From Raja brachyura (taxonomy: Eukaryota): a stretch of 64,000 bases of DNA. The DNA lies in NCBI GenBank assembly GCA_963514005.1, contig OY740804.1, positions 19,592,001-19,656,000 of the forward strand, given 5' to 3'. Numbering within the stretch: the first letter of the stretch is position 1; each line of letters starts with the position of its first letter. A program made the position numbers and the translations under genes. The notes beneath the pieces were generated by a model, which was given only the letters and a program-made list of their open reading frames with translations, searched no databases and was not told where the DNA came from. Shown here in pieces: positions 12,956 to 63,559 of the stretch.

Positions 12956-15830
12956 GGTTTGACAAGTTCTTTCAGAGCAACGTGTGAGTAAATGCAGTAT
13001 ATTTTGTATAACAGCATGGGATTGGGATAATATGATAGTTTGATTGTAATGGCAATATTGGTGGGCACTGGCATCTCAGTGCTCTGGAGCACAGATATTA
13101 GGTGGAGGTAAAAGAGGAGATTAGTTACGGTATTGATTTGTGAGAACAACTTGGCAGGCCTTGGAATACTCCAGGAAAATGTTCTGTGATGCTATATAGA
13201 TAGACATGATAATGTGGTGATCATTTTGATGGGATTACACTTTAGGAGGAATTAGGGAGATTACAGATAGGTGTGGGGAAAAATAGGGTTGTAATAGGAG
13301 ATGATTTGACATGCCTAATATTGACAGCGATGGCCTTAGTGCTGAGGGATTAGATAAGACATTTGTTCTGTGTGTCCAGGGAAGTTTTCTCAAGCAATAT
13401 GTAGATGACCCTGTGTGTAGGGAGGAACTGCAGATGCTGGTTTACACTGAAGATCGACACAAAATGCTGGATTATCTTCATCAGACTGATGAAGGGTCTC
13501 GACCTATTTTTCTCCAAAGATGCTGCCTGACCTGCTGAGTTAATCGTATGTGTGTGAGACGGGGGATGTCTCCCCCCCCCCCCCCCATGTTTTGAGAGGT
13601 GGGGGAGTATCTCCCCCCCCCCCCCCCCCCATGTTTTGTAATACGGTGGAAAAAAACTTAAAATCTCCGCTTTCCGCGAGACAGTGGGGGTGACGCTTTC
13701 TAAGGGTTCAATCGGCCCATTGGCGGGGCCTTTCATTGCCGCCCGGCGCAGCTTAAAATCAAACTGCTGCATCAAGACGATCGAGGCTCCAGAGGTTGAA
13801 GCCCCTGCAGGCAGATTTTAAGACATGCCGGGCGATGAACGGCCCCGCAAACGGGCCGATTCAAGCCCCACGATTTGGGGTGGACGAAGCTGTTGTTGCT
13901 GGAGTTCAGAGTCGGTCACCAACCAGGTCAGCTCCCAAGGTCAGCTGCCCACAGGGCCCACAGCCAAAGCCTCCGAAGCTGTGTGTGTGGGTGTGTGGTT
14001 TTGATAGCGATGTCCGCCCCACTAACCTTTAACTGCAACAGCCTTTCCCAATCAAACATTGCAAGTTCTATCCTAATCCCATTAGGTTGGTTCCTCTTTG
14101 AGAAGTAAAAATGATATACACACTTACGAATTAAATTACACAGGCAAAAAGAGGACATCGTATTTTTCTGGTACATAAGGGGAATCTCAAAAGCTTCAAA
14201 CTATATTAAGAGCAAATGGATAACTGGTGAGAGAGTAGGTCCGGTGAAGGATCAGTGTGGGAATTTTTATGTGCCACCGAGGGAGTTGATGAGGTCTTAA
14301 ATTAATACCTCATTTGCATTTACTGTGGAGCGTGACATGGAAACTGGTGAGTTCCGAGAAGATAACAGTGGTAACCGGCAGCACATCAACATTATAAAAG
14401 AGCGAGTGCTACTGGAGAGGATTCCAAGAGACAGGGTCTATCTGCATTTAAAAAAAAACAAGGATTATTAATCGAAAGATACAGCATGGAAACGGGCTCA
14501 TTGGCCCACTGAGTCTATGTTGGGGAAATTCCCAGGATCAAATCACCTGGATCCCAGGGTTAAAAGAGACGACTTTGGATTGTCAACATCCAATTTTCCA
14601 TAGATGATGCAACAGTTCCCACCAGTTGGAAGGATGCAAATATTACTGCACTGTTTAAGAAAGGAGAGGGGGGGAAACGGGATACTACAAGCTCAAGTTC
14701 AAGGTAGGCTCCGGGCATTACTGGAGTTGCAAGGGATCATTTCAGATTTTCACTACAGTAGTGGGGATGGTGGGAGTTCTCTCCAAGTCGCAGGGCAACA
14801 ATGAACAGTGACCATGGTTTAAGTACAACAGTGGGGAAGGTGGAGTAGATTCCAGTCCCCAGTATAGTAGGTGAGGCCAGCGAGGCGGATGTCAGTTTGC
14901 TCCCATTTTTGGTGGAGAGGACAGGGGTTCACTACCAGTTCCCAGTCCAATAGTGGGGAGGGGAGAGGGTCACACCCAGTTCCCAGTACAATAATGGGAG
15001 GGAGTGAGGGAGGGATGCACTACTACTTCCCTGTATGTAGTGGGGAGGGGAGTATTTCACAGCCAGTTCCAGTACAGCAGAGGGGGGAGCGGGTGTCACA
15101 CCCATTTCTCAGTACAGTGGTGGGGAGGGGTGGGGACAGCAGGAACTCGATAAGCTATGATCTTTTGCAAGATGTAAGCTCGAGGATCCGAATCGTATCA
15201 ATCTACTTCTGCCTCTGGAAAATATTTCTCTTTGTACCTCTCATCATCCTGTCCCATCGATTTAAATCCACCTCCCCCTTCCCCCCCCCCCCCCCCCCCC
15301 CCACCCCCTTCTCTGATGTGACCAACCCCACTCCAAACTTGTCCACATTCCTGGATCTCAAGCAACAAAGGCAGGGATCCCCTCCTCTTCACCCCCTGTC
15401 CCTCCCCCATCAGCGATCTGTGAATGTGCATTCCAAGGATCTGCCTCAAGCTCCCTCTGACCCCCCCCCCCCCCCCCACACCGGACATTCTTTCATTTAC
15501 CTCGTGTTCCCTCGCCTTGTCACTTTGTCCAATCTCTCTCCTTCATCTGCGGACTGGGTCACATTTGCCATGTCTGTTCCCTCCTGACCCGTCCGTCGAT
15601 ATCTGGCTGCAGGCTGTAACTTCCTTCCTCTGCCCCAGTGCAGAGAGTGTTCACTCTGTTCCCTCCGTGGGCTCACTGTGTGATGCAGGAACTGTGGGCC
15701 GGGCCTCTCTCAGAGCCAGGAGCCAGACGATGGGCCTCATGCCCTGCTCCTGTGCTCTGTGATTCTCCCAGCTCCGATTCCTCCTCCAGTTCCTGTGCTC
15801 TCCTGCTGACTGCCTCTCTTGTCTCCTCAG

Positions 15831-17381: not shown

Positions 17382-18742
17382 GGGTTACACAAAAAGCTGG
17401 AGAAACTCAGCGGGTGCAGCAGCATCTAAGGAGCGAAGGAGATAGGCGACGTTTCGGGTCGAGACCCTTCTTCAGACTGGTCAGGGATCAGGGAAACGAG
17501 AGATATAAACAGTGATGTGGAGAGATAAGGAACAATGAGTGAAAGATATGCAAAAAAGTATTGGTGATAAAGGAAGCAGGCCATTGTAAGCTGTTTGTGG
17601 TGTGAAAATGAGAAGCTAGTGCGACTGGGGTGGGGGGGGGGGGGGGGGAGATGGAGAAGGAATGTCAGGGCCAGAGGGCTGAGGGAGAGGTGGGGGGGGA
17701 GGCAGTCTGGGTTAACAGAATTGAGAAAATTCAATGTTTAAGCCCAGAGGATGCAGACTCCCCAAGCGGAATATGAGGTGCTGTTCCTCCAACTTGCGGT
17801 GTTGATCACTCTGGCCGTGGAGGAGGCCCAGGACCGAGAGGTCGGATACGCAGTGGGAGGGGGAGTTGAAGTGCTGAGCCACCGGGAGGTCGGGTTGGTT
17901 ATTGCGGACCGAGCGGAGGTGTTCGGCGAAACGATCGCCCAGCCTCCGCTTGGTCTCACCGATGTAGATCAGCTGGCATCTGGAGCAACGGATGCAGTAG
18001 ATGAGGTTGGAGGAGATGCAGGTGAACCTCTGTCGGACTTGGAATGACTGCTTGGGTCCCTGAAAGGAGTGGATGGGGGAGGTGAAGGGACAAGTGTAGC
18101 ATCTCTTGCGGTTGAGACCAAGTGGAGGCTGGTATACATCGGTGAGACCAAGCGGAGGCTGGGCGATCGTTTCGCCGAACACCTCCACTCGGTCCGCAAT
18201 AACCAACCCGACCTCCCGGTGGCTCAGCACTTCAACTCCCCCTCCCACTGCGTATCCGACCTCTCGGTCCTGGGCCTCCTCCACGGCCAGAGTGATCAAC
18301 ACCGCAAGTTGGAGGAACAGCACCTCATATTCCGCTTGGGGAGTCTGCATTCTCTGGGCTTAAACATTGAATTTTCTCAATTCTGTTAACCCAGACTGCC
18401 TCCCCCCCCCACCTCTCCCTCAGCCCTCTGGCCCTGACATTCCTTCTCCATCTCCCCCCCCCCCGTCGCACTAGCTTCTCATTTTCACACCACAAACAGC
18501 TTACAATGGCCTGCTTCCTTTATCACCAATACTTTTTTGCATATCTTTCACTCATTGTTCCTTATCTCCCCACATCACTGTTTATATCTCTCGTTTCCCT
18601 GATCCCTGACCAGTCTGAAGAAGGGTCTCGACCCGAAACGTCGCCTATCTCCTTCGCTCCTTAGATGCTGCTGCACCCGCTAAGTTTCTCCAGCTTCTTG
18701 TGTAACCCTCGATTCTCCAGCATCTGCAGTTCCTTCTTCAAC
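17382..18742. mobile_element. Penelope-like element: inverted pair of GIY-YIG endonuclease 3' ends
   Basis: NLIYCIRC..LIYIGETKRRLGDRFAEH..GLN encoded on both strands; near-perfect ~580-bp inverted arms; TSD AACCTACAAACCTG at 17368-17381 and 18743-18756. Confidence 0.92.
18615..18642 (+). ncRNA. Minimal type I hammerhead ribozyme motif in the Penelope terminal repeat
   Basis: CUGAAGA-A-GGGU(CUCG)ACCC-GAAA-CG-UC; identical copies on the minus strand at 17448-17475, 19062-19089 and 36222-36249. Confidence 0.6.
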
Positions 18743-20470: not shown

Positions 20471-21468
20471 CTGCTGGGGTGCCTGGAACCATGAGCCACC
20501 GTCTGAGAGTCAGGGTTTTATAGACTTTGGAGATACAGTGCAAAAACAGGCCTTTCAGCCCATCGAGTCCACGCCAACCAGCGATCACCCCGTACACACT
20601 AGCATTATCCTAGGCATTAGGGACAATTTACAATTTTACCGAAGCCAATTAACCTACAAGCCTGTGTAAGAAGGAACTGCAGATGCTGGATTAAACTGAC
20701 GATAGACACAGAAACCTGGAGTAATTGAGCGGGTGAAGCAGCATCTCTGGAGAAAAGAAAAGGTGACGGTTCGAGTCGATACTCTTCTTCAGACCCTTCT
20801 TAATCAGAAGGGGCTTGACCCAAAACACCACCTATTCCATTTCTCCAGAGATGCTGTCTGACTGCTGTGTAATTCTAGCTTTTTGTATCAACTTCTTTTG
20901 GGTTTGGGAGGAAACCGGAGCACCCGGAGAAAACCAACGCGGCCATTCAGGACAGAGATGGAGAATATCTCATCCAGAGGGACTGAACCTTGTGGGGGCT
21001 CAGTTTCTGAGCACATTCAAGATGGATCCTTGGGATTGTGTGTGTGAAGGAAACCAAGGAATAGTGCAGAAAACTGGTGCTGAAGGAAAAGACCAGCCGT
21101 GATCTTATTGAATGTGGCAGGAAAAACAAGGGACCGAATACCCTTCTCCTGCTTTTATTTCTATTTTACATATTGACAAAATGATACGGAACTGGAGCGG
21201 ATTCCAAGGATGCAGAGGTATAAACAGGACACAGTGGAGAGTTTGTGGATGAGCGCGGACAGTGGTTGGGAAGGGGGGCGCAGCTCACGTGTGGACTTCC
21301 TCCAGCGACAACTGTCTGAACTGAAGGAGATGGGGAGAGATGGGGAAACTGGTGGATGGAAATAATTGGGATCGACTTAAAGTTCACCTGCATTTGTTGG
21401 GGGCGGGTTGTTGAGATGTCCACAACTAGGTCTTTTACTCATCTTTAATTTCTTAGTCCCAACCCCAG

Positions 21469-21753
21469 AGCCTGTGTCAGGAACACAGATCTTGGTTCAG
21501 CGCACCGGCATCTGCAACTTCACCCTGACCTGCTCCGTGACCTCTGGTGCCCCCACCAGCTTCAGGTGGTGGAAGGGAGGAGAAGCTCTGGGAAATGACA
21601 GCACCCATCACCTTCGGGGACACGGAGAGATTATAGCAGTTCATCATACAGCAAAGGACAAGGATGTTGTGTACAAGTGTGAGGCCAAGAACCCGAGCAG
21701 TACAGGCACGGCACAGGTCCGGCTCAAAAACGTCTGTAAGCAGACCACATCTG
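21469..21753 (+). CDS. CD2/SLAM-family receptor, exon 3 (IgC2 domain, four Cys)
   Basis: CAG acceptor; G|GTGAGT donor; 285 nt, phase 1/1; EPVS..CNFTLTC..FRWWK..YKCEAKNPSS..VC. Confidence 0.92.
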
Positions 21754-22224
21754 GTGAGTGTCAAAGGGGGAATTGTTTTTTAGAAAGGAGCTGAGATTCC
21801 TTCATACCTGTAGTGTATTTGGGTGCTTTTAACTGACTTAAAAGAACACTCGGATACAGGAGTAAACTAACAAGCTTCTTTATTCTAGGACTTCACCTTG
21901 AGTCTCCCCCAGCGCATGCATCCCCTCGCACAAGACATAACATATGCCAATTATATCACATACATCACACTGCTCCCCCTTTAACTTGGAGGCAGGTAAC
22001 ACCATTTACATTATATACATTACACTGCTCCCCCTTTAACTTGGAGGCGGATAACACCATTTTGTTTACATTAAATATAATTGATTAATTATATTATTAC
22101 AGTCATCTTACATTACATCCATATAACTGTAATAATCATATCTAAACTTAGCACATAATTTTTCATTCCACTCATCTTCCTTAAACCACATACTTTATGT
22201 AACACATAAACCCCTTGCTTTATG

Positions 22225-22760
22225 TGTTATCCTTTTCCGTTCCCTTCTGTGTAAATTGCGCACTCTTTCTAATCACTCTAGTTCTACCTGTATCTCTGCC
22301 TCTTCCTTTTTAAATATCCTAATCTAATTTGCAGATTTCTTCCTGTTCCTGATATTCTGCTAAAGTTAACATTTCCTTCTCTGCTTTGTTTTCCTCTGTT
22401 TCTGTTCCTTATTTGTAGGTGGGATCTGACACATGACTGCAGGTATTCGTTTTCTAGCAGCTTCCTCTGTCGCACAATTTCCTGGTGCTGCGTGTTTATC
22501 TGCTCTTGCTGTACAATAACATTCTGCAATGCATAACCATTTGTCCATTGCTCAGTGAAGGAAGCTCCATGCTGGACTATAGTGAAGTGTCCTAATCGCA
22601 ATCGGTCCTGCATACTTTTGGCTCGACCGACAAGCCTCTCTTCTTTAGACTTTTCTCGTAACAGCTTTTTGCTCATCGTCGCACATTTATTTAACCGTAC
22701 TTTGTATCATTTAAGCCTTTTCTGTTGTTCATCTATTTGTCTTCTTAAATCACCTTTCTG
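22225..22760 (-). pseudogene. TLK2: Captured intronless tousled-like kinase coiled-coil fragment (TLK2-like), frameshifted
   Basis: [82 protein letters not shown]. Stops before the kinase domain. Confidence 0.9.
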
Positions 22761-23782
22761 GTTATTCATCAAGAAGTAGGATCTGTATTGTCTTTGCAAT
22801 ACAACAGTGGCTTTGATTTGCGCTCTGTATAGTTTTCTTACTACATAAGCACGGTAGTGAGACTGCACTACAACTGTTGTATATTTCAGTTTGAGGAAGT
22901 TTTTCCTATATCGTTTAAGTCTTTTGTATTGTGCATCTATTTGTCTCCTTAGGTCTTTCCTATACCAAGTCATACAAAGTACTGACTGAACTTTTACAGT
23001 AGCCCTCTTTTGCTTAATCCAATGCCTAACCACATACCCTTGTAGGCAGCCTGAATGGTAATGGTTGCATGCCTCATTGACTGATTTTGCACAAACTGGG
23101 AATGCCCTATTTTGCATGCTTTGTACCATCTCTGGATCAAAATGACTGCTTGTCTCATTGCTCTGTAGCGTACCCTTGATCGGTAACCACGGTATGCAGC
23201 TTGCAGAGTGATTACAGCCGCCTTTTGCATCAAGAAATGTTTTCTTGTAATGCACATCATTAAGACTGACTTAATATGGTGTGTCGCCTTGATTTTCTCA
23301 ACCAATTCGCTGGCTTTAATCCCACGGTAGAAGACCTGAATACAAACCACTGCTTTTCTCAAACTATTATAATGTCTCTCTTGGACATCTCTTATCTGGC
23401 AAGCTCTATATTGCTGCTGTACTGCAATGGCAGACCTGCATAGTTTCTTGAAATACTGACGCTGTTTATGCATCTGATAATACGTCTGCATGACCTTGGC
23501 AGATTTGAGCATCACCCCAATTGCTTTCGAACAAGCATTCCTCGGTAGGCAGCCTGAATCAGCACAACACTGCTGTGTACCTTCATGTAAGTCTTGCGAT
23601 CACTTTCCATTTGAAGGTGTGCCCTATAATGGGTTTGTACTATTATAGCTGCCAATCTCATTGCCCTGTATGGACGGTATACTCTGTGCCTTCTAAATGC
23701 TGTTTGCATTACCATTGCTGCCTTCTGTTTGTTCTGGATCTCTCGCCGTACCTTCATACCCCTGAATGCAGCTTGAATGGTT
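22760..23782 (-). pseudogene. ASPM: Captured ASPM-like IQ-repeat fragment, frameshifted
   Basis: Serial IQxxYRG repeats with ASPM-type spacing in ORFs 23512-23757, 22994-23515 and 22707-23255. Confidence 0.8.
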
Positions 23783-24320
23783 AGCTGTATTTCACCCTCG
23801 TTAGACCTTATCTGGACTACGCAGTTGCAGCTTGGGACCCATACATAGATAAAAACATTTCATCCATCGAACGTGTCCAAAGACAGGCCGCTCGATTTGT
23901 TACTAACACCTACGATAGAGAAGCGACTGTCACCAAACTTCTGAATTCTCTGGGGTGGAACCCTCTCCAAGACAGACGTGAAGCTCACCGTTTGACCTGT
24001 TTTTACAAAATGTTAAATGGTCAGCTAGACATAGATCACAAGACCTACACCAACCCCAAACCAATTAGGAGCAGACGAGGGCATTCGATCCAATTTGTGG
24101 TCCCAGCCTCAAAGACAGATGTGTACAGCAATTCGTTCTTTCCACGCACTATTAAAGCATGGAATAATCTCCACCAAGCCACGGTTGCCCAGCCAGATGC
24201 AACTAAATTTAAAGTGACACTTTCTTCCCAATAACCCTCTCTGGCTAAACCCCTCCCTTCACCACCTCCAGTTTAAATTCCAGTTGGAATATTTTGGAGG
24301 ACCAAGTAACCAAGAACCAA
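23783..24320 (+). mobile_element. CR1-group (L2/Crack/Daphne-like) LINE 3' fragment nested in the LTR element
   Basis: YFTLVRPYLDYAVAAWDPY..IERVQRQAARFV and SFFPRTIKAWNNL; (AACCAAG)n tail; GGTT on both flanks. Confidence 0.85.
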
Positions 24321-24758
24321 GGTTGCCTTCTGGATGGCAATGTCCCTTTCCATTTGACTTTTGTCCCTTTGCCTTTGACCTTTGGCCTTTTCCACTTGAC
24401 CTTTGTCACTTGGCACTTGACTTTTGTCACTTTGCCCTTTACTTTTGTCCTTTGAGGAACTCCCTGCCCTCTTTAGTTTAGGCTCCTTGCCTATGGATAC
24501 CCTTGGAGGTTTTGGCAAGAAATGAGCCATTAATGCCTTCTTACACTCCTCATACATTTTGTCTGTGGGCTTTGCTGGCAGCAGTAACATACGCGAGGTC
24601 TGATAACCCTCTCTTCCTAAGCCTAATATGCTCCATGCTCTCTTCTCCTCTGCAGCGATATCATTGGAAATGAACGAAGCCTTCAAGACTTCGGTCCATT
24701 TCTCAAAATTACACCCAGAATCTAACTGGGGCACCTTTCCTACAATTTGAAAAATCAT
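24321..24758 (-). pseudogene. Gypsy gag N-terminal stub followed by a low-complexity linker
   Basis: FEKWTEVLKASFISNDI..LGREGYQ..LLLPAKPTDKMYEE..LMAHFLPKP resembles vertebrate Gypsy gag N-termini. Confidence 0.75.
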
Positions 24759-25212
24759 GCTAGCTGTTGCTATTCAGGTGCACTATATTCTGTTCTCTCA
24801 CTGTTTTCTGCACTGGACTCAATCCACTGACTATTACCAATTCTTATAATAATAGATTTACACTATTAACCAACATTTCATGTCAATAGCCATTAAGAAC
24901 ATTTTTAACCATATTCCTTCTATGCACACAGATTTACTATTAATAACGGTGATCAATGCATTACATTCAAACAGTCCTGCTTTTACTGTGCCCATGCATT
25001 ACATTCACAGAGGGCTTTTATTATGAAGTATTTCACAGCTCCAGCTTGTGGTCTGTGGACTCTGGTGCATCCTCGACCTCTCGAGCTGTCTCCACCAGTA
25101 CCTTTGCTGATGGCCTCACCGGACCTCCACTTTTTTGTTGCTTTTGCTGGCTCCCCCGGGCTTCACCATTACTTTTGCTGCCGCTGGCTCACTGCCGAGT
25201 CGACTCCCGTTG

Positions 25213-26139
25213 CTACGCTGACTTGCCTGCTGTCTCCCTTGTACGCCCTGCGGAAGGTAAGTCGCTGCTGCTGGTCCCACTGCTCGTCTCGTCGCTAGCT
25301 AACTGGCACGCCTGGCTGCTCGGCTTGTCGGGACTGTGCCCCGCTGTCGGGGGCTGGGTAAGCGCTGTGTCCTGCTTCTCTCGCGCGGACCCGCTTCTCT
25401 CTCTCTCGGCCGGCTTTCTCTCGCGACCGGGCTTTCTCCACTTCCGGCCGTCTCCCGCGACCGGGCTTTCTCCGCTTTTTCCCCCTACCGGGCTGACCCT
25501 GCTCCTGACTGGGCTGAAATGCTTGAGTGCTGTGTCCTGCTTCTCTCGCGTGGACCCACTTCTCGCTCGGGGGTCGGATTTCCTCTCGCGTCCAGGCTTT
25601 CCCCGCTCTCGGCCGTCTCTTGCGACCGTGCGCTGTGTCCCGCTTCTCTCGCGGGGCCTGGTCCACTTCTCTCTCGCAGTCGGCTTTCCCACTTGGTCGG
25701 TCCGCTTCTCTTGCGTGGCCGGACCCTCTTTTCTGCTCACGGTTGGGCTGACTCTGCTCCTGACCGGGCTTTCTCTGCTCGCGGTCGTCTCCTGCGACCG
25801 GGCTTTCTCACACGACTGGTCCGCTTCTATCCGGGCCGTTTTTTTAACTCGGCCGGTCCGCTTCTCACGCGGCCGGCTTTCTCCCTCGACCGGGCTGATT
25901 CTTCTCCCGGCCGAGCTTTCTCTCATGACCGGGCTGACTGCTCCTGGCCGGGTTGACTCCGTTTGTGTCGGTGGCTTCTCCGGACCTGCCCGTGACCTAC
26001 CCGGTACTAGGCCCTCACTGGACATTGGTGGCGGCTCCTGGGCCTGGCTGTGGGCTACACAGCCCTGGAAAACGTTCAAAGTCGGTGGCGGTCTCCGGAC
26101 CTGTCCGTGGCCTACATGGTACACGGCCCTGGAACTCAC
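25213..26139 (-). other. GC-rich degenerate repeat region with an Arg/Ser/Pro-rich open frame inside the LTR element
   Basis: 308-aa ORF with recurring SPVRSRVSP and REK units; the opposite strand is also open. Confidence 0.35.
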
Positions 26140-27299
26140 CCGAAGTCGGTGGCAGCTACTGGGCCTCTACTGCCCCTTTGCCGTGGCTGCACGGTCCTGG
26201 AAAGCGTTCCAGGTAAGTTGACACTGTCGCTGTCCTGCTGGTTAGTTTTCCAGCTTTCGGCTGCGTACTTCGGTGACACTTACTTACTGCCCCACTTGTT
26301 TTCCTCGCTTCCTGTTCCGACCTTTCCTTTCTTTGGCGCCAATTCAAAACCATATGGCGCTAAACCTTTTTGCTTAGTGCTGTTCCACTTTGTTTCCATT
26401 ATACAACCTCTTCTTTTAAACTTTTTTTTCTCTTGACAGCCCTTCTTCTTTGTTCTTTTCTGTTCTTTTATCCTCGGTGCCTTGTTATCCTTGTTGTGTG
26501 TTTTGGTGTAACAATTCACCTAAAACCTAGCTGTACAAAGATTATTCAGCTTGAGGAATTCGACAAAAAAAACTCAGGTAAAATGTATAACAATCCGAAG
26601 GACGACATTTTGACACCTAGACACAACTTAGAGATAGCCTGACAAACTCGCCGACTTGTACAGCTTTAAACTACAGTCCCGTGCTTAGAGGGATCTGTAG
26701 GCCTCTCATGTCCAGCTCGCAAACAACTGCGACACAACTCCGTATCTACTGTTTAAACTGTTAAACAATTCTGCGTGTTGCAAAACAGTCCTGCGGGTGA
26801 GTTCACAAACTCCATCCCATCCTCGTCGCCAATTGTAGTGTATTTGGGTGCTTGGAACTGACTTAAAAGAACACTCAGATACAGGAGTAATCTAACAAGC
26901 TTCTTTATTCTAGGACGCCACCTTGAGTCTCCCCCAGCACATGCATCCCCTCGCACAAGACATAACATATGCAAATTATATCACATACATCACAGTACCC
27001 AAGGAGTTTATTTTTATGATTTCATCGATTTGTTGGGACCTGGAACATCAAGCTGTGACACTTTCCATTGCCATTCCATTGATGAAAACAGGGTTGTTGA
27101 TCCTTGGCTTTTCCCTCCTGAAGTCAACAACCATCTCTTATAGAAACAAAGAACTGCAGATGCTGGTTTCCAAAAAATAGCTCAACGTGCTGAAGGATCT
27201 CAATGAATCAAGCTTCACCTCTGGAGAACATGGATAGGAAACTTTGCAGGTCAGGTTTCAGCTCCTTGGCCTTGCTGTAATTGAGAGCAAGATTGGTGC

Positions 27300-27945: not shown

Positions 27946-29600
27946 ATGACGATCATCAAAATGCAGATGTCATATGCCAGTGAACTTTACAGTGGTAACT
28001 GATCTGAGAGCCCCTTGTCCAGACCTCCTGGTGAAGAAGCTGGATTGGGAATGGAGATTTCACCAAATGACTACCAAGTCAAAGCAGCCAACCAGTACCT
28101 TCAAATTCTTCACTGATGCCTGGCCACATTGAAGACTGGAATGGTTCCCCCTCCTCGAGGATGGAACTGAAATCCACCACTTCAAACAATGCATTTACCA
28201 CAGTTAATGATGCTCAAGATATATAACTGGCTCCGACTACATATTATCTCTGTACCGCCTATTCCCCTGGCATCAGTCTGAAGGGTCTTGAACCAAAACA
28301 TCACTTATTTCTTCTCTTCAGAGAGCATCATGCCTGTCTCGCTAAGTTACTCCTGCATTCTATGTCTATCTTTGATTTAAACCAGCATCTGCAGTTCTTT
28401 TCTACACCTTCTAACTTCTATATTTAATACTTGACTAATGAAGCCAGTGTGCCGAAAGCCGAAATTCTTCCATAGTGTGATTGAAGTCTGCCTGAGAGTT
28501 TGCAGCCTCTGCTTGCATATTGGAAGGTTTGCTCCTCAAGTTCTGGTTGCACTTCAGACCGTGCTCCTGATCTTTGGGCACCCAGTGTGGGCCTCGGTGG
28601 GTCTGTTAGGGAACGTACGCGTTGGTCTGCTCCTGGGTCCAGCCCAGATGGCATTTCACAGGTGCAGCTGTGCGTAGTCGAAAGTTCCGCCCTGACTACC
28701 AGATCCTCTTTGGAGGTTATGTTCATATCTGGGTGACATTGAGAGGCAATGTGCAGCATCTACTGGCTGCTTGGGGGCTGCCTGGGAGCAGAGGACACTG
28801 CAGTGGCTCAAGTGTGTCGAGATAAGGTTGTTGTAACTTGAAGTTTGTTGATCGTATACTGTATGAATACAATCCTGTATACCTGTACGTGTACAAATAT
28901 AATGTATACTGTCCTAGTGTGATGCTTGTAATCGTGGAATTTCCTTTAAAAAAGAAAACAACTGTGGTCTAACTCAGAAACTGGCGTAATATATGGAGGG
29001 GGTAAAGTGAATGGTGATTGGAGAGGATAGTGGGGTATTGGAGAGGATCGAGGGGAATTGCTCTGGATGGAGGGTGAAAGAGGATAGCGGGATTGGAGGG
29101 AAGTGATGTATGGGGATATTTGAGGCAATTGAGGAACATGGAGGGTGGAGGAGGAAAAGGAGGGGAGTGAAAATAAAAACCACTGCAGTTTCCCAAAAGC
29201 ACGAAGCATCCGTGGAAAGAGAAACAGTTCGCGTTTCACATGAAGAACTCTTCATCAGACCTGAGAGACGAAGAAATGTCAGTATAGGTGGCAGTGAAAT
29301 GTGAGGGAGGGGATGGGTTGGAGTCTAAGGTGGGATGAGGGCGTGTGGCAGATGGGAGATGGTTGAGTTACTGTGGCCGTGCGACCTATTGCTGATGTGG
29401 TTCTGGCCACTGGGACGTGCCCAACAGGGCTGGCTGTCCAGGGAGAGGAAACAGGATGGCACTGGTTTGGGGTTTAGTGGGGAGAGATGGGAGTGGCAGT
29501 GGGGACATGATACTCGGGTGGGGTGGGAGTGGATCGATCCACCCCATGTCACTGGGGGAGACGATGGGGTTGGAGTCACTGAGTCTTTTCTCCTCAACAG

Positions 29601-29780
29601 GATTGCCGTGGTGGGTGATAATGCTGATCGCCATTGGGGTTCTGATTGCGATTATTGGAGTCTTCTTCATCGCTTACGTCTGCATGCTGAGTGCAACACA
29701 TGTGACGTGGGCCGAGCTGCGTGCCGGCTGGGTCAACTGGCACCAAGAAGATCCAAAGAGTTGTGCTTCCTTCTGTACCC
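29601..29780 (+). CDS. CD2/SLAM-family receptor, exon 4 (transmembrane and juxtamembrane)
   Basis: CAG acceptor; C|GTGAGT donor; 180 nt, phase 1/1; WWVIMLIAIGVLIAIIGVFFIAY. Confidence 0.85.
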
Positions 29781-30066
29781 GTGAGTGTCTGCGCCAATCT
29801 GGGGAGTGTGGGGAGATCAGGGGAGTGCAGAACAAGGGGTAGGAAGGGTGGGGGGAGCTGATAGGGGAGGGGCAGGGAATGTGAGCAAGATGATAGAAAG
29901 GGCAGGAGAGAGGAGACTCAGAGGAGTAGGTGGGAGGTGCGGGGTTGAGACCGAGATGGGCAGAGAATGGAAGATGGGGCAGGATGTGTAATGTGGAGTT
30001 GGACTGAGGGTTCCAGAAAGCAGATTGCTGATTACAGTCTTGTAACCTGTGTTCATCCCCCTACAG

Positions 30067-30126
30067 TGTTGTGGAATCCAAAATCAGTCATCTAGCTTGG
30101 CCAGAACAATCAGATTAACAGGAACG
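30067..30126 (+). CDS. Exon 5 (cytoplasmic tail); in-frame TAG at 30093-30095 gives a ~287-aa product
   Basis: CCCCCTACAG acceptor and G|GTAAGC donor are conserved in the inverted paralog. Confidence 0.6.
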
Positions 30127-30199
30127 GTAAGCAACAGCAAGGTCCCCAGCGGGGGTCTCCTGTAGCCCATCACTGACACCCCATAGTGGAACCAGGAAC

Positions 30200-31530
30200 T
30201 GAGGTCCCCCACAGACCCAGTTACTGGGGTACACTGTCCCCCACAGACCCAGTTACTGGGGTACACTGTCCCCCACAGACCCAGTTACTGGGTTACACTG
30301 TCCCCCACGGACCCAGTTACTGGGGTACACTGTCCCCCACAGGCCCAGTTACTGGGGTACACTGTCCCCCACAGGCCCAGTTACTGGGGTACACTGTCCC
30401 TCACACACCCAGTTACTGGGGTACACTGTCCCCCACAGACCCAGTTACTGGGGTACACTGTCCCCCACAGGCCCAGTTACTGGGGTACACTGTCCCTCAC
30501 ACACCCAGTTACTGGGGTACACTATCCCCCACAGACCCAGTTACTGGGTTACACTGTCCCGCACAGATCCAGTTACTGGGGTACACTGTCCCCCACAGGC
30601 CCAGTTACTGGGGTACACTGTCCCTCACACACCCAGTTACTGGGGTACACTGTCCCCCACAGGCCCAGTTACTGGGGTACACTGTCCCCCACAGGCCCAG
30701 TTACTGGGGTACACTGTCCCCCACAGGCCCAGTTACTGGGGTACACTGTCCCCCACAGGCCCAGTTACTGGGGTACACTGTCCCCCACAGGCCCAGTTAC
30801 TGGGGTACACTCCCCCACAGGCCCAGTTACTGGGGTACACTGTCCCCCACAGGCCCAGTTACTGGGGTACACTGTCCCTCACACACCCAGTTACTGGGGT
30901 ACACTGTCCCCCACAGGCCCAGTTACTGGGGTACACTGTCCCTCACACACCCAGTTACTGGGGTACACTGTCCCCCACAGGCCCAGTTACTGGGGTACAC
31001 TGTCCCCCACAGGCCCAGTTACTGGGGTACACTGTCCCCCACAGGCCCAGTTACTGGGGTACACTGTCCCCCACAGGCCCAGTTACTGGGGTACACTCCC
31101 CCACAGGCCCAGTTACTGGGGTACACTCCCCCACAGGCCCAGTTACTGGGGTACACTGTCCCCCACAGGCCCAGTTACTGGGGTACACTGTCCCCCACAG
31201 GCCCAGTTACTGGGGTACACTGTCCCCCACAGGCCCAGTTACTGGGGTACACTGTCCCCCACAGATCCAGTTACTGGGGTACACTCCCCCACAGGCCCAG
31301 TTACTGGGGTACACTGTCCCCCACAGGCCCAGTTACTGGGGTACACTGTCCCCCACAGGCCCAGTTACTGGGGTACACTGTCCCCCACAGGCCCAGTTAC
31401 TGGGGTACACTGTCCCCCACAGGCCCAGTTACTGGGGTACACTGTCTCCCACAGACCCAGTTACTGGGGTACACTGTCCCCCACACGCCCAGTTACTGGG
31501 GTACACTGTCCACCACACCCAGTTACTGTG
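30200..31530 (+). repeat. 32-bp minisatellite (CCCAGTTACTGGGGTACACTGTCCCCCACAGG), ~41 units, in intron 5
   Basis: Direct tandem array; the 492-aa ORF is a by-product. Confidence 0.97.
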
Positions 31531-31764
31531 AAGATGGGGCATGTGTTGTCATCTTGACGTTTTCCATGGCATTTTGTGACAATTTGAGTCTCGGAATGGG
31601 CAAACACACAAGAGTAAGCCCCGGGGGTGCATGTGTCGAGTGGGACATGGACAGTTGGTATTAAGCTGCTGCTTTGTGAGGGAAGAGGGGTGGAGTGGGG
31701 ACACTGAGAAGTGTCTGTCAATGGGCACTCGCTGGTCTCCTCGCCTCTGCTCTCTGTCCTACAG

Positions 31765-32700
31765 AAATGGCGGAGATGCTGTGATTGAAGAATGGATTGG
31801 ACATGGTTCGGCAGCTGAGACAGAGAGATCCCACTCACAGACACCGCCTGAGAAGAGACACCAGCTCAGTCACCCCTTGACAGAGAGACTCCAGCTCACG
31901 GACATCTGCTACCTCCATTGGGCAGTGAGTGCCTCTGCACGTGCCCAGTTACTGGGGAACAATGCCCATCTCCAGTGCAAAGGGAGGATGGTGGGGGTGT
32001 TTCCCTCCGAATGGAACCTCGATCTTTTTCTCATTGGGCCACTTCGGAGTAACCGTGTTCAACACCAGGGGTTCTACAGTGACCAGTGGTGACCCCACCC
32101 CCAGTCTCCCTGACTCTCTGTCCAAGACTATCATATGTAACTACATCTGCTCCGTGTTCTGTGTTACTGACTGTATCGCCGCTGATGTTCCATAGCCGCT
32201 CTAGGGACATTCGACCCAGCTTTAGTTTTAATTTATTTACATCCTGGGGGGAAGTGCCAGAGTTCAGGAACGAATGAGGAGCCATGGAAAATCCAGGGAG
32301 ACCCCAAGGCAGGCACAAAATGCGGGAGAAACTCAATGAGACAGCCAGCATCTCTACAGAGAAGGAATGGGTGATGTTTCGGATCGAGTCCTCACCCAGG
32401 AAGACAGATGTACTGATTCTGGCACCCCTCTCCCCATTGCTATGGGAAGAGGCCATTGACGTCCACACCTCCCTAAAACTCCTGGGTCCCTATCTCTAGG
32501 GCTGAAGCAGGGTCACCGATTGCCAATGGCTTATTGCTGATGTTTTACGTTCTCTGCCAACACTAACCGGTGAACATTTCTTCAGTGAAGCTACTCCCAC
32601 ACAGCCTTTCACGGCCTGGTAATGTGGTGCATCAGCCACTGGGAACGCTATTCACCGGTTCACTGTCACACATTCAGAAGGTCAGACAGAATCTGTGGAG
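31765..32700 (+). other. Terminal exon 6 (EMAEML-stop at 31782-31784 in phase 1) and 3' UTR
   Basis: Strong polypyrimidine tract and CAG acceptor; conserved in the paralog. The 3' end is uncertain. Confidence 0.55.
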
Positions 32701-32715
32701 AGAATCACAGAGTAA

Positions 32716-33294
32716 AGGGCCTGTCCTACAAGCATGCAACTCTATGCGATGAACACGATCAAACTAGAAGCGGGGGCCGAGCCAAGGTCGGGTGATCCCC
32801 TGTACAGGGCCGTTCCCACCAGCATGCGCGTGTATGCGCCAAGCGCAACCAAACCGGCAGCGGGGACAGCGCGGAGGTCGGGTGAGTGGCGCAACGCGGT
32901 GCAAAGTGAGGCGAACTTGGAGCAAAGTCTAAGGTAAGTTCGCCAGGACAGAGAGGGGCACACAGAGAGGGGCACAGAGGCACACACACACAGAGGGCCA
33001 TGGAGCCACACACATAGAGGGTCACGGAGGCACCTACAGATAGGTTGACGGAGGCACAACGTCGGGGCGGTGTGTAATGCGTCGAGGCGACTGCGAGCCG
33101 ACAAGCTGTTGCCGCGCGGAATTTTTGAACATAGTCAGTTTTTCGGAGCCCCGCGCGATGTCGGGACGAACTCCGCACAATTCCGCACGGCTCCGGCGAT
33201 CGAAGTGGGACCGGCCCTGCGACGCCGGACGGCTCAAGCGACCACGTTAGGTCGCGCTAATCGCATAGAGTTGCATGCTTGTAGGACAGGCCCT
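32716..33294. mobile_element. PIF/Harbinger-type MITE
   Basis: 35-bp perfect TIRs AGGGCCTGTCCTACAAGCATGCAACTCTATGCGAT; TAA/TTA flanks; the paralog shows the empty site with a single TTA. Confidence 0.88.
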
Positions 33295-36200
33295 TTATTG
33301 TACAAGATAGCACCACCTTACTCACAATTGTCCTGTGGTGGTTTGTGTCAGGTTTCATTCAGATTGATTTTATATTTCACAAGTTATTGACATTTAAAAA
33401 ATTTCAAAACCCCATTTTGAGAACAATAACTTGACAGATGCTGCGGCAGTTGATGGGAGATTCTGGTAATTTCCAGATATGATGTCACAACGGGATCTCA
33501 TTTACGTAAGCTGCCGTAAACAGTCCTCCAGCCAATCAACAGTGTTCCACCCAGTTCAATTAGAGATTTGTTGTGAAGAGAGGGAGTAAGTGTGGGAGGG
33601 GAGGAGAAGAAATGTTCTTTAAACATTGTGTTTAATGGAGGACTGCAATAGGGGAGAGGTGAATGAGTGACTGAGGGTAGGGAAAAGGAGAGGGAGGGAG
33701 TGGAGGAGGAAAGGGGGAGGTGGATTATTGCATTGGAGGAACGGGGCCCAATGGGTCCCACTTGGTCTAGTATCTTATCTATCATATCTATATACTTTTA
33801 AAACTCTGGGTGTATGTCACTTTGCCTTTGAAACATATCTCCTCAAAACCAGATGCAAAAACACAGAGATTTTTACAACTTCGGTAAGGATAATAATAAT
33901 AATACGTTTTATTTATAGGGCGCCTTTCAAGACTCTCAAGGACACCTTACAATTAACACAAGCATAAAACAAAAACACATATACAGCAATAATACACAAT
34001 TCGAAGAGAGAGCAGCGGCAGCCAATCGCGCTAGCGTTCACTCTCGCCTCCGAAGCCATCTGCAGCACACCAATCAAGATAAAACACAACATAAAGAATT
34101 TAACATAAAACATTAAAAACATCCCCCCACAATGGTTCCCACTGTGGGGGAAGGCACAAAGTCCAGTCCCCATCCCCACCCTAAGTAGTCGGGCCTAATG
34201 AGGCCTCCACAGTCGCCGCTACGGAGGCACGATGTTCCCGGCTGTTCTCACTTGGTGATGGTACAAGAAAAAGCAAAAAAAGTGTTAAATGACATAAATG
34301 ATATAAAGAAACAGTTTAAAGTATACTGTGTGTGTCCACCCCCGGTGGGAAATTTCAGGTGTGCTTCCGTAGGTGTAAATTGCATTTAGCTCCGCCCCTT
34401 ACCAAATAATATTGTAGAAAAGAAAAAAACAGGACAGAACAGAATATAGTATGCACCAAAAAAAAACCAGAACATGTACAGTAAGTAGTTTGTCTAATAG
34501 CTTAGTCTAAGTAAATATTTACTATTTAAATACCGTATTAAAATTTTTTTTTAATTTAAATATTGATATTCATATATTAAACACCCTCTCCCCCTCGCCA
34601 GGACAGAGAGGGGCACAGAGGCACACACACACACACACACACACAGAGGGCCATGGAGCCACACACATAGAGGGTCACGGAGGCACCTACAGATAGGTTC
34701 ATGGAGGCACAACGTCGGGACGGTGTGTAATGCGTCGAGGCGACTGCGAGCCGACAAGCTGTTGCCGCGCGGAATTTTTGAACATAGTCAGTTTTTCGGA
34801 GCCCCGCGCGATGTCGGGATGAACTCCGCACAGCTCAGGCGATCGAAGTGGGACCGGCCCCGCAACGCCGGATACTCAAGTGACAACGTTAGGTCGCGCT
34901 AATCGCATAGAGTTGCATGCTTGTAGGACAGGCCCTTTATTGTACAAGATAGCACCACCTTACTCACAATTGTCCTGTGGTGGTTTGTGTCAGGTTTCAT
35001 TCAGATTGATGTTATATTTCACAAGTTATTGACATTTAAAAAATTGCAAAACCCCATTTTGAGAACAATAACTTGACAGATGCTGCGGCAGTTGATGGGA
35101 GATTCTGGTAGTTTCCAGTTATGATGTCACAACGGGATCTCATTTACGTAAGCTGCCGTAAACAGTCCTCCAGCCAATCAACAGTGTTCCACCCAGTTCA
35201 ATTAGAGATTTGTTGTGAAGAGAGGGAATAAGTGTGGGAGGGGAGGAGAAGAAATGTCCTTTAAACATTGTGTTTAATGGAGGAGTGCAATAGGGGAGAG
35301 GTGAATGAGTGACTGAGGGTAGGGAAAAGGAGAGGGAGGGAGTGGAGGAGGAAAGGGGGAGGTGGATTATTGCATTGGAGGAACGGGGCCCAATGGGTGC
35401 CACTTGGTCTAGTATCTTATCTATCATATCTATATACTTTTAAAACTGGGTGTATGTCACTTTGCCTTTGAAACATATCTCCTCAAAAACCAGACGCAAA
35501 AACACGGAGATGTTTACAACTTCGGTAAGGATAATAATAATAATAATACATTTTATTTATAGGGTGCCTTTCAAGACTCTCAAGGACACCTTACAATTAA
35601 CACAAGCATAAAACAAAAACACATATACAGCAACAATACACAATTCGAAGAGAGAGCAGCGGCAGCCAATCGCGCTAGCGTTCACTCTCGCCTCCGAAGC
35701 CATCTGCAGCACACCAATCAAGATAAAACACAACATAAAGAATTTAACATAAAACATTAAAAACATCCCCCCACAATGGTTCCCACTGTGGGGGAAGGTA
35801 CAAAGTCCAGTCCCCATCCCCACCCTAAGTAGCCGGGCCTAATGAGGCCCCCACAGTCGCCGCTACGGAGGCATGATGTTCCCAGCTGTTCTCACTGGGT
35901 GATGGTACAAGAAAAAGCAAAAAAAGTGTTAAATGACACAAAGAAACAGTTTAAAGTATACTGTGTGTGTCCACCCCCTGGTGGGAAATTTCAGGTGTGC
36001 TTCCGTAGGTGTAAATTGCATTTAGCTCCGCCCCTTACCAAATAATATTGTAGAAAAGAAAAAAACAGGCCAGAACAGAATATAGTATGCACCGAAAAAA
36101 AACAGAACATGTACAGGAAGTATTAAAGAAGGAACTGCAGATGCTGGAGAATCGAGGGTTACACAAAAAGCTGGAGAAACTCAGCGGGTGCAGCAGCATC

Positions 36201-42510: not shown

Positions 42511-45169
42511 TTACCTTTATTCCTTGGAAACCTTGCTATTGTTTTGATGTAATTAGGAGGCAGACATGATCCCAGAGTCCCCGCTGCCTAGCGACCATAA
42601 AACTAAGTGTGGAATTGGTCAATTTGCATCCAACCTCAATGTCAAACGTGCATTGATTGGACAATTACTACTCGGAAAATTGGATGTTTTCTCATATTTT
42701 TAAAAAATGTGCAGGTTTTAGTCTTGACGAATTTCAGGTATGATTTAAATAATATTTTTACACAATATGTTAAAAATTCAGGTAGTTCCGTGAGTTGGAT
42801 CACGAACTTGAACGAGAAAGCTCCTCGGCCCACGGCTTACCATTGGTCGCTGGGGCTCGGCTTTCGCCGGCGCCAGGGGGGTTGGCCAGCAGCTGGGGCT
42901 GGCGCTTCTTCTCCGCGCTGGCTGTGGCCTGGGGCCGTTGATGTCGTCGGTCCAGGGCTGTCAGTTGGCCCGGTGGGGCAGGTGGAGTTGAGCTGGGGTC
43001 AGAGCTTATCTCTGTGCTGGCTGTGGGCCTAGGGCCACTGGTGTCGTCATTCCAGGGTTACCCCGGATATCTCCGGCCGCCCCCCCGGGCGGGGATGAGA
43101 CACTTGAGGGGGGGGGGGGGGGGTCCAGTGGTGGTTCGACAGCGCTTCTGGTGCTGGGTCCCAGAATAGATCCTGGCTGTGGATGAGGCGAGTGTCTGTG
43201 TGCGGACTCTCCCGTCTCCCGCTCGCATCTGCGCCCCCTCTATTGCTGTGACACCCCGCTTTCCCACTACCTGTTCCTTTGGGGGGGATGAGGAGTTGAC
43301 CATTCATGGGAGTTTCTCTGGAATCGAGCATTCAGTCTTGCTGAGCAGGAACCTACCCTGTGAAGAGTGTGACACATTCACACTCTTCAGCACCACCCAG
43401 TCAATATTTACGCAATGGCTGAGAAATAACTAGTAACATTCACACAGTGCCAGGCGATGATCATCCTCAACAGGTGCATCTTACCACCTGCCCCCAATGT
43501 TTATTGATATTTCCATCATCCAGTCCCGCCCATCAACAAGCTGGGGACATGATTAACCTGTAACTCCAATTGACACCATGGCTACAGGAGCATGTGAGAC
43601 ACTGGGTCTCCTCTGGGAGACAGTATGAAAGGAGGCTCTCCACTCTCCACTATTTATTGATTATAGCTCAACATTCACACCATAAACCCATCCAAACTCA
43701 TCTACAAACTCCTTGACCTAGGAGTTGCAGAGAAAAAGTCCAATGTCCGCAATGAGGCAGATTAAAATATCAGTCTCCACTAATTACAATGCTGAGAAAA
43801 TATATTCTGCACTCTGGCATTTTTCTCTTTGCTCTACCTGTTGTGCTTGATTGACTGTATTCATGTACTGTATTATCAGGTTTGATTGGATAGAACAAAA
43901 GCAAAAGCTCAAAGGCAACTAATGGTGGGTGATAAATGTTCAGCTTGACAGTCACATCAAGATTCTTGTAAAATGAAAAAAAAACTCTTCCCGACGTCTC
44001 TAAAGCCGATCAGCCCGACACCCCTCTGAGATCTCCAAGCTCCTCCAGCACCAGTACTCCCCCCCCCCCCCCCCCCATATCTCTGTAACCTCCTCCATTT
44101 CCGCAGATGCCCAGCAACAGAATGATTTGGAAGAAGCTTTTAGAGATTTTATTATAAAATATCTAGATTAATGAATTACATAAAAATCTGAAGTAACTTA
44201 ATAAAAAACCTGCTGTACACACTGGGCAGGTCTGTAGAGAAAAATTCAGATGAAACCCTTTGGACCTGGTACAATAACTCTGTGATGCTGTCTGACCCAC
44301 TCGATGTCTGACAGTGAACAGGTGAATAATGTTCCCAGTGTCTGGTGCACCACAGCACCAGGTAGTGAAAGGCTGTGTAAGAGTGGCTTCACTGATGAAA
44401 TGTTCACCGGTTAGTGTTTAACGTAAAACAGCAGCAATAAGCCATTGGCAATAGGTGACCCTGCTTCAGCCCTAGAGAGCGGGACCCAGGAGCTTTAGGG
44501 AGGTGTAGACAGTCCCTGGCCTCTTCCCATAGTCATGGGGAGAGGAGTGCCAGAACCTGGGTGGGGTCTCGACCAGAAACATCACCCATTCCTTCTCTCC
44601 AGAGATGCTGCCTGTCCCATTGAGTTACTCCAGCAGTTTGTGTCTGCCTTGGAGTCTCCCTTTAATTGTCTTTGGTTCCTCACCCGGTCCTGACCTCTGG
44701 CACTTTCCCCCGGGATGTAAATAAATGAAAACTAAAACTGGGACAAATGTCTCTGGAGCATCTGTGGAACATCAGTGGAGAAACAGTCAGTAACACAGAG
44801 CACAGAGCAGGTATGGTAACAAACCACAGTTTGGGATAGTCAGGGAGACTTGGGGTGGAATCACCACTGGTCAATGTAGAACCCCTGGTGTCGAACACGG
44901 TTCCTGCTCAGAGGGCCAATGAGAAAAAGGATCGAGGTTCCAGTCGGACGGAAACACCCCCACCATCCTCCCTTTGCACTGGAGATGGGCATTGTTCCCC
45001 AGTAACTGGGCACGTGCAGAGGCATTCACTGCCCAATGTAGGTAGCAGATGTCCGTGAGCTGGAGTCTCTCTGTCAAGAGGTGACTGAGCTGATGTCTCT
45101 TCTCAGTCGGTGTCTGCGAGTGGGATCTCTCTGTCTGAGCTGCCGAACCACGTCCAATCCATTCTTCAA

Positions 45170-45189
45170 TCACAGCATCGCTGCCATTT
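45170..45189 (-). CDS. Inverted paralog, terminal coding exon (EMAAML-stop)
   Basis: Reverse-complement homolog of 31765-31784. Confidence 0.5.
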
Positions 45190-45424
45190 CTGTAGGACAG
45201 AGAGCAGAAGTGAGGAGACCAGTGAGTGCCCATTGACTGACACTTCTCAGTGTCCCCATTCTAACCCCTCTTCCCTCACAAAGCAGCAGCTCAATACCAA
45301 CTGTCCCTGTCCCACTTGACACATGCACCCCCGGGGCTTACCCTTGTGTGTCTGCCCATTCCGAGACCCAAATCGTCACAAAATGCCATGGAAAACGTTG
45401 AGATGACAACACACGCCCCATCAT

Positions 45425-45915
45425 CACAGTAACTGGGGGTGGTGGACAGTGTACCCCAGTAACTGGGCCTGTGGGGGACAGTGTACCCCAGTAACTGGGT
45501 GTGTGGGGGACAGTGTACCCCAGCAACTGGTCGTGTGGGGATTCTTAACCCAGTAACTGGGTCTGTGGGGACAGTGTACCCCAGTGACTGGGTGTGTGGG
45601 GGAACAGTGTACCCCAGTAACAGGGTGTGTGGGGGAGTGTACCCCAGTAACTGGGTGTGGTGGACAGTGTACCCCAGTAACTGGGCCTGTGGTGGACAGT
45701 GTACCCCAGTAACTGGGTGTGTGGGGGACAGTGTACCCCAGCAACTGGTCGTGTGGGGATTCTTAACCCAGTAACTGGGTCTGTGGGGACAGTGTACCCC
45801 AGTGACTGGGTGTGTGGGGGAACAGTGTACCCCAGTAATAGGGTGTGTGGGGGAGTGTACCCCAGTAACTGGGTCTGTGAGGACAGTGTACCCCAGTAAC
45901 TGAGTGCGTGGGGGA
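45425..45915 (-). repeat. Shorter, more diverged copy of the 32-bp intronic minisatellite
   Basis: Reverse complement of the unit at 30200-31530. Confidence 0.9.
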
Positions 45916-46022
45916 CTGTTCTGTCATTTCCCACCTGTGGCCCTTTCTCAGTTCCTGGTTCCACTACGGTGTGTCAGTGATGGGCTACAGGAGACCCCCG
46001 CTGGGGCCTTGCTGTTGCTTAC

Positions 46023-46082
46023 CGTTCCTGTTCGTCCCATTGTTCTGGCCAAGCGTGGTGACTGGTTTTGGATTCCACAAGA
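46023..46082 (-). CDS. Inverted paralog, cytoplasmic exon (LWNPKPVTTLGQNNGTNRN), open
   Basis: 60 nt, AG/GT bounded; homolog of 30067-30126. Confidence 0.6.
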
Positions 46083-46368
46083 CTGTAGGGGGATGAACAC
46101 AGGTTACAAGACTGTAATCAGCGATCTGCTTAATGAGACCCTCTCTCCAACTCCACATTACAAATCCTGCCCCATCTTCCATTCTCTGCCCATCCCTCTC
46201 ACAACCCTGCACCTCCCACCTACTCCTCTGAGTCTCCTCTCTCCTGCCCTTTCTATCATCTTGTCCACATTCCCTGCCCCTCCCCTATCTGCTCCTCCCA
46301 CCCTTCCTACCCCTTGTTCTGCACTCCCCTGATGACCCTACACTCCCCAGATTGGCACAGACACTCAC

Positions 46369-63555: not shown

Positions 63556-63559
63556 ATAT

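Follow-up and report, generated by a model that had tools for sequence, protein, structure and literature searches.

The DNA analysed here (the window) is a stretch of 64,000 nucleotides from the skate Raja brachyura (assembly GCA_963514005.1, contig OY740804.1, positions 19,592,001 to 19,656,000 of the forward strand). At 21809 to 26994 of the window, on the minus strand, lies a 5.2-kb long terminal repeat (LTR) element whose interior joins a fragment of gag to pieces of two host genes, ASPM and TLK2. We found that this element is a dead member of a non-autonomous Gypsy family, which was made by LTR-mediated retroposition: two spliced mRNAs were captured, and the product was re-inserted repeatedly.

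Architecture of the element

The LTRs, primer-binding site (PBS) and polypurine tract (PPT) reported in a preliminary description of this DNA were all present. The 5’ LTR (26834 to 26994) and the 3’ LTR (21809 to 21969) were 161 bp each, 95.0% identical, and had TG..CA ends in element sense. The PPT lay immediately inside the 3’ LTR and occurred twice (at 21970 and 22025, within 21970 to 22039) through a short internal duplication. The PBS followed the 5’ LTR at 26814 to 26831 (TGGCGACGAGGATGGGAT at 26831-26814), so that both cis signals of an LTR element were in place; we take the PBS to be of the tRNA-Ser type. The 5-bp target-site duplication (TSD) that had been described was there, but not as a perfect repeat: ATACC on the left (21804 to 21808) and GTACC on the right (26995 to 26999), which in element sense read GGTAC/GGTAT and match at 4 of 5 bases.

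In element sense, the interior began with a 2-kb leader with GC-rich internal repeats (24759 to 26813), homologous to the leader of related elements. The N-terminal part of gag followed (24455 to 24758, ATG at 24758), and then a linker of tandem 21-nt (7-codon) repeats, whose copy number varied among family members (24341 to 24454), and the first 45 nt of ASPM, in frame with gag (24322 to 24366). At this point a 536-bp 3’ stub of a long interspersed nuclear element (LINE) had later inserted into the window copy, antisense to the element (23786 to 24321, plus strand). Beyond it came 833 nt of ASPM IQ repeats from the giant exon (22953 to 23785), a short TLK2 piece (22909 to 22955) left over from a duplicated junction unit of 222 nt, 163 nt of ASPM (22748 to 22910) joined in frame to TLK2 at a common TGTG, 540 nt of TLK2 comprising five host exons without introns (22213 to 22753), and a 3’ untranslated region (UTR; 21970 to 22212) homologous to that of a pol-bearing relative, L108. 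The order of gag, ASPM and TLK2 in the preliminary description thus held, although the LINE stub and the duplicated junction, which give the cargo the pattern ASPM, short TLK2, ASPM, TLK2, had been overlooked.

As had been stated, protease, reverse transcriptase (RT) and integrase of the element were not found in the window copy, nor was RNase H. IQ motifs were detected by Pfam in all three IQ-bearing reading frames; the gag stub alone gave no Pfam match, and an Rfam scan of 21700-27100 returned 0 matches. Apart from the LINE insertion, the window copy was damaged by two 1-nt deletions in ASPM and by stops in TLK2. The LINE stub, presumably CR1/L2-like, ended in AACCAAG repeats; a 95% identical copy stood in the flank of another locus (L080:408-947, element orientation), and its sequence was abundant in contigs of further sequencing runs.

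The cargo is spliced mRNA of ASPM and TLK2

The parent loci were found via the ASH domain for ASPM (C10) and via the kinase domain for TLK2 (C34) and TLK1 (C7). The IQ repeats had been attributed to ASPM, and the cargo aligned over 984 nt, at 87.9% identity, with the end of the giant IQ exon of host ASPM (G000:C10:10.603-10.604 Mb). The TLK piece likewise proved to come from TLK2, with 90.0% identity to the host gene over 530 nt. Five consecutive TLK2 exons, which span about 10 kb on C34, were contiguous in the element at 88-92% identity per exon, and all four introns were gone. TLK1 was rejected as the parent, its exons being 75-78% identical. Skate TLK2 proteins were the closest database proteins to the TLK cargo, and its sole PDB match was TLK2 (5O0Y). 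The captured part corresponded to skate TLK2 residues ~193-375 and ended before the kinase domain. The cargo is therefore spliced mRNA of both genes.

The host ASPM giant exon itself (L053, G000:C10:10603.3-10609.2 kb, minus strand) had an open frame of 1999 aa, with about four internal repeats of 657 nt (219 aa), the IQ array having expanded in the host lineage.

Capture by template switching and a long form of the element

Microhomology was present at each switch: CCA.CAG at gag/ASPM, TGTG at ASPM/TLK2 and AAA.GATA at TLK2/3’ UTR. Together with the lost introns, this bore out the proposal that the mRNAs were captured by template switching. A search with ASPM sequence from past the junction yielded one read-through copy, L073, among 40 scored. 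There ASPM runs to the end of its exon, is spliced to the next exon, and then switches into TLK2 at a CA/ACAA overlap. The entry into TLK2 is three exons earlier, so that L073 holds eight TLK2 exons, and its 3’ switch is the same as that of the family. Seven TLK2 introns and one ASPM intron are absent from L073, against four TLK2 introns in the family.

The switch in L073 puts TLK2 out of frame. Compared with L073, the family lacks 506 nt at the junction, between one TGTG and another, and this deletion brings TLK2 into the ASPM frame. The 222-nt unit of the junction duplication was exact in 32 of 56 copies. Judged from this one copy and the tree of copies, the order of events would have been long form, deletion, 222-nt duplication and then its partial loss.

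An old, dispersed, non-autonomous family

The 2.7-Gb genome was searched with several queries. The LTR gave 604 candidate matches. A 301-nt junction query gave 228 candidates, of which 40 were scored, and all 40 crossed the junction at 94-100% identity. A 30-nt probe of the ASPM/TLK2 junction (up to 3 mismatches) matched at 158 places and its reversed control at 0; these are matches rather than elements, with double matches per element possible and old copies under-counted. The family comprises at least about 150 sites.

Seventy loci picked among the top matches were analysed with the window copy (71 in total). The TLK2 piece was present in 70/70 sampled loci and in the window copy, and both LTRs were detectable in 30 of the 71. 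Among these 30 copies, 14 had a perfect TSD (13 distinct sequences), 6 had a TSD with one mismatch and 10 had no clear TSD. Segmental duplication was rejected as the general source of copies because TSDs differ among them. Two near-duplicate pairs of loci were present (L020/L034 and L021/L022); one of each pair was excluded from the indel, substitution and junction-phase counts below, and both were kept in the TSD table and in the counts of TLK2 3’ indel sets. Insertion of independent L1-type retrocopies into an LTR element, each with its own TSD and poly-A, was also looked for. It was rejected because the junctions are common to many loci and have neither poly-A nor a cargo TSD. The earlier claims that the element integrated as a unit with its cargo, and that it represents a mobile non-autonomous family, were thus borne out.

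A tree of 67 copies with host columns had the shape of a ladder from old through intermediate to young copies, with modest support and with L073 basal. Young copies had a median LTR divergence of 5% and old copies (n=2) one of 8%, and by this measure the family looks old. One young copy, L014 (G000:C2:42.07 Mb), had LTRs differing by 0.6% although its cargo branch was as long as those of other young copies; this mismatch of ages suggests LTR gene conversion or a younger insertion. Three identical junction matches spaced 6459 bp apart (G000:C1:42702379, 42708838 and 42715297) suggest a tandem triplication of one copy. The 3’ end of L070 had a match near the TLK2 locus, which proved to be a different interspersed repeat.

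A protein of Leucoraja erinacea annotated as ‘ASPM homolog isoform X1’ (XP_055489032.1) is a gag-ASPM fusion that begins with Gypsy gag. It is probably a mis-annotated family element and possibly an expressed one. No annotated ASPM-TLK2 chimeric protein was found among 86 database matches (155-496 aa). Sixteen sequencing runs from six organisms, none of them listed as RNA, contained 32-40% of the sampled sequence words. Contigs from four runs of three organisms contained element-type joints, including a form without the LINE; these contigs are not evidence on expression because the RNA status of the runs was guessed.

The Gypsy backbone

A profile search with gag of an old copy retrieved Gypsy gag and gag-pol proteins, and the database relatives were polyproteins of the order gag, protease, RT, RNase H, integrase. 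One relative is named K02A2.6-like. A search with one of the retrieved proteins located close relatives in the genome. The gag stub of the window copy was 73-83% identical in DNA to gag of relatives in the same genome, consistent with its earlier description as gag. Four relatives (L106-L109) had gag and leader in common with the family. The LTR was common to L106-L108 (~76-85%), the 3’ UTR to L107-L108, and the PBS was identical in L108. Both RT and RNase H were detected in L108 and L109, and protease in L107. The family is therefore Ty3/Gypsy-derived and non-autonomous, sharing gag and cis sequences with RT/RNase H- or protease-bearing elements; the backbone presumably belongs to a Mag-like clade.

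Relative to these elements, family gag has a 342-nt internal deletion. Old copies kept a double zinc knuckle with the ASPM switch directly after it, and younger copies, including the subfamily of the window copy, have lost the knuckle. A separate Gypsy element in the window (~8.3-13.0 kb) was considered as a helper and rejected, since its DNA did not match that of the element, and its RT was ~35% identical to that of the relatives.

One reading frame was kept while ASPM residues drifted

By an anchor measure, the ASPM/TLK2 junction was in frame in 42 of 43 copies. The ASPM/short-TLK2 junction was in frame in 48 of 51. Across the repeat-rich linker, gag and ASPM were in frame in 22 of 39 (p=0.0025 versus one third). 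The core cargo (ASPM, 990 nt; TLK2, 288 nt) contained 158 private indels, 125 of them frameshifting. Eight indels were found in two copies (7 frameshifting), and the sole indel in three or more copies was a 3-nt deletion. In the 3’ UTR, used as a control, 12 indels were shared and 38 private; when only frameshift-size indels were counted, the numbers were 12 and 31 (Fisher 2e-8 versus core cargo). The difference stood at Fisher 2e-4 after collapse to 7 events and pooling of both UTR controls. For the ASPM lineage 3.6 frameshifts and 1.9 stops were expected, and 0 were observed (Poisson p=0.004). In the 3’ part of TLK2, the commonest in-frame indel sets had net lengths of -30, -3, -24 and +3 and were carried by 14, 6, 4 and 3 of 67 copies.

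Amino acid constraint was assessed from nonsynonymous and synonymous changes (N/S), in which changes at the lineage level were compared with private changes as a neutral yardstick. ASPM gave 21/7 or 32/13 in the lineage versus 562/178 private (ratio 0.95 or 0.78, not significant), and gag gave 12/6 versus 109/32 (p=0.38). For TLK2, the subfamily-level count was 18/10 versus 180/41 private (ratio 0.41, p=0.046; non-CpG p=0.038), and a stricter comparison of old versus young copies gave 10/6 versus 207/45 (ratio 0.36, p=0.09). A count by number of carriers (TLK2 p=0.004) was set aside owing to a possible host-lineage CpG bias and to stops miscalled in some cases from the host codon. ASPM residues drift almost neutrally, and constraint on TLK2 is weak and borderline. 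Selection for an open frame across most of the cargo is well supported, and the results largely establish that a single frame, opening at the gag ATG and covering ASPM and the initial 300 nt of TLK2, was maintained even as ASPM residues drifted.

Why the frame was kept

The results show that, in the course of reverse transcription, a Gypsy element changed template from the end of gag to spliced ASPM mRNA, from there to spliced TLK2 mRNA, and finally to its own 3’ UTR, with loss of all of pol. The product retained LTRs, PBS and PPT; its copies occupy at least about 150 sites and form old, intermediate and young subfamilies, and it was probably mobilised in trans by related pol-bearing elements. 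In the mechanism that we favour, the cargo would be mainly a translatable stuffer. An open frame ending near the 3’ LTR may shield the genomic RNA from the decay that follows an early stop and a long 3’ UTR, or may couple translation to packaging, and in-frame variants would thereby have out-copied others. Which genes were captured may be mostly incidental, their mRNAs probably being plentiful in the dividing cells of the germline. According to the excerpted text of one report (PMC2925335), a retroviral RNA with a long 3’ UTR is subject to decay unless protected. We give about an even chance that a need at the RNA level for translation to reach close to the 3’ LTR is what retained the frame, the stability step being assumed.

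Several observations weigh against this account. The 5’ UTR control (232 nt) had 0 shared and 21 private indels, so the absence of shared indels is not special to coding sequence, and indel rates may differ between retrotransposition and genomic residence. A measure of phase from BLAST edges placed 49 of 66 copies in frame at ASPM/TLK2; we attribute the 17 out-of-phase cases to gapped extension through microhomology, since the anchor test and the inspected junctions were in frame. In the last third of TLK2, a net -25 set was found in 5/67 copies and a net -1 set in 2/67, with 36/67 in frame overall, and a stop at TLK2 offset 498 (a CpG site near the end of TLK2) was carried by 37 young copies. 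The TLK2 ratio of about 0.4 hints at some constraint on the protein. The long form is known from one copy, L073. An autonomous Gypsy partner had been anticipated, and pol-bearing relatives with a common LTR and PBS do exist, but the four examined (of 20 candidates) were all broken, and neither an integrase nor an intact helper was seen in them. The RNA-stability step is hypothetical, as is expression of the family.

It is rather unlikely, in our assessment, that the fusion protein itself was useful to the element. The TLK2 coiled coil could stand in for the deleted capsid segment by providing oligomerisation and so promote packaging in cis, or could act as a kinase-less partner of TLK1/TLK2, with the IQ array as a spacer or calmodulin binder. 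The subfamily-level TLK2 count, the family-defining deletion that brings TLK2 in frame and the loss of the middle of gag fit such a role, as does the annotation of the Leucoraja gag-ASPM protein; the stricter TLK2 count, the gag count, the neutrality of ASPM and the lack of an annotated ASPM-TLK2 chimera among the 86 matches do not, and in the intermediate and young subfamilies the frame is shifted over ~45 codons of TLK2. Dimerisation of TLK2 is mediated by its coiled coils, and CC1 is required for TLK1 binding (PMC6023931, excerpted text). It is doubtful that a vertebrate Gypsy family recruited a host kinase coiled coil into a Gag fusion, and that selection favoured a gag-IQ-coiled-coil protein through repeated cycles of transposition after the frame-restoring deletion. 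If so, this protein would parallel a gag-onc fusion, but in the germline, aiding the spread of the element or disturbing TLK signalling in skate germ cells. The suggestion in the preliminary description that the parent genes may be countered by dominant-negative peptides or by small RNAs from the cargo is likewise not supported so far by the near-neutral ASPM and borderline TLK2 counts.

That the cargo is a neutral passenger, with spread due to the LTRs and leader and with the open frame reflecting chance and few mutations in a master lineage, is unlikely. Lineage substitutions in ASPM are few (28 to 45), there are groups of copies with out-of-frame TLK2 3’ sets, and shared indels are missing from the 5’ UTR control as well; young LTR retrocopies, moreover, are often in frame by youth alone, as the excerpted text of PMC5131818 has it. 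A passenger does not account for the missing frameshifts and stops in the ASPM lineage, nor for the fact that the frame is kept or restored by each of several independent rearrangements, namely the 342-nt gag deletion, the 21-nt repeat, the 222-nt duplication, the junction deletion and three TLK2 3’ sets. We consider it very unlikely that the cargo acts mainly through small RNAs, either as a shield, in that silencing of the element also hits ASPM/TLK2, or as a weapon, in that PIWI-interacting RNAs (piRNAs) of the element cut the parent mRNAs, although such an action is compatible with the RNA-level account that we favour. The cargo is 88-90% identical to its parents, as an action of this kind would allow; preservation of the frame is not predicted by it. 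ASPM and TLK2 are not known to be piRNA-pathway genes. Such genes are involved in 8 of the 9 captures in the excerpted text of a Drosophila study (PMC13534243). The same text reports that telomeric captures ~90% identical to a host gene yield piRNAs against it, and that capture families have higher copy number.

Comparison with known systems

In acutely transforming retroviruses, transduced coding sequence of the host continues the frame of a gag stub, pol is lost and a helper is needed. Membership of the skate family in that class was rejected on its Gypsy backbone, neutral ASPM N/S and lack of a kinase domain; it also differs in being germline-fixed, without env and without sign of a selected oncogenic protein, and the likeness is structural only. 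With K02A2.6-like Gypsy elements the family shares the gag N-terminus, the double zinc knuckle (in old copies), the order gag, protease, RT, RNase H (in relatives) and the 5-bp TSD.

The closest likeness in mechanism is to the LTR-mediated retrocopies of Tan et al. 2016 (PMC5131818). In the excerpted text of that paper, partial spliced mRNAs replace internal open reading frames between LTRs in sense orientation, with microsimilarity at the switch points; a single copy can combine two or more parent genes, and the products can be re-copied as non-autonomous elements. Among the structural features that we tested, the skate family has intron loss, replacement of the internal open reading frame, microsimilarity and secondary retroposition with shared switches. 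The published cases in that text are young or polymorphic and at few sites, while the supplements may list cases of higher copy number; the skate family is a two-gene chimera with at least about 150 copies, successive subfamilies, a gag-fused frame and a long-form precursor. Maize Bs1, as presented there, is also an LTR element with a chimera of several host genes inside it and the same switch points in all copies. It differs in having 1-5 copies, a plant host and three parent genes, one part being out of frame; the skate family has a vertebrate host and is ~30-fold more abundant. Drosophila telomeric elements (TART-nxf2, piwi, aub; PMC13534243, excerpted text) also carry ~90% identical host gene fragments in a multicopy element. 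Those are non-LTR elements with fragments of 140-235 bp, mostly from piRNA genes, that act through small RNAs, whereas the skate cargo is 1.6 kb from two cell-cycle genes in the gag frame.

No description of the ASPM-TLK2 family, and no link of ASPM and TLK2 with a retrotransposon, was found in the literature searched, which left most subscription journals outside; a Repbase or Dfam entry is possible. The mechanism is known already from LTR-mediated retroposition and maize Bs1, and what is new within the literature searched is the scale, the persistence and the retained frame. Most known captures of host mRNA by LTR elements are at young or low-copy loci; here such a capture has produced a long-lived vertebrate family. 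The long-form copy and the subfamily ladder record its steps, and provide a natural data set on whether cargo is a passenger, an aid at the RNA level or a protein used by the element. This question can be addressed by sequence and gonad RNA, because the frame was retained with near-neutral ASPM residues. The family also generates false ‘ASPM homolog’ gene models such as the Leucoraja protein, and may confound read mapping to ASPM and TLK2.

Surroundings of the element in the window

The element lies ~50 bp downstream of an immunoglobulin-domain exon (Pfam Ig_3, I-set; 21381-21791, plus strand, GT donor near 21755), antisense to it and probably within an intron; a second similar exon was not found in the window. 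The separate Gypsy element, at ~8329-12967 on the plus strand, has 185-bp LTRs that are 96.8% identical, reading frames for RT, RNase H and integrase, and a different PBS. Repeats elsewhere in the window include a near-perfect palindrome at 17382-18708 (96-99%), a direct duplication of 1.64 kb at 32952-35833 (93-98%), and a 25-bp repeat array of 2.3 kb at 54530-56798. An inverted duplication pairs 29320-32693 with 44284-46838 (arms 86-94% alike, ~12-17 kb apart, including a 32-bp minisatellite), and a second large inverted pair joins 48194-49164 with 61645-63568.

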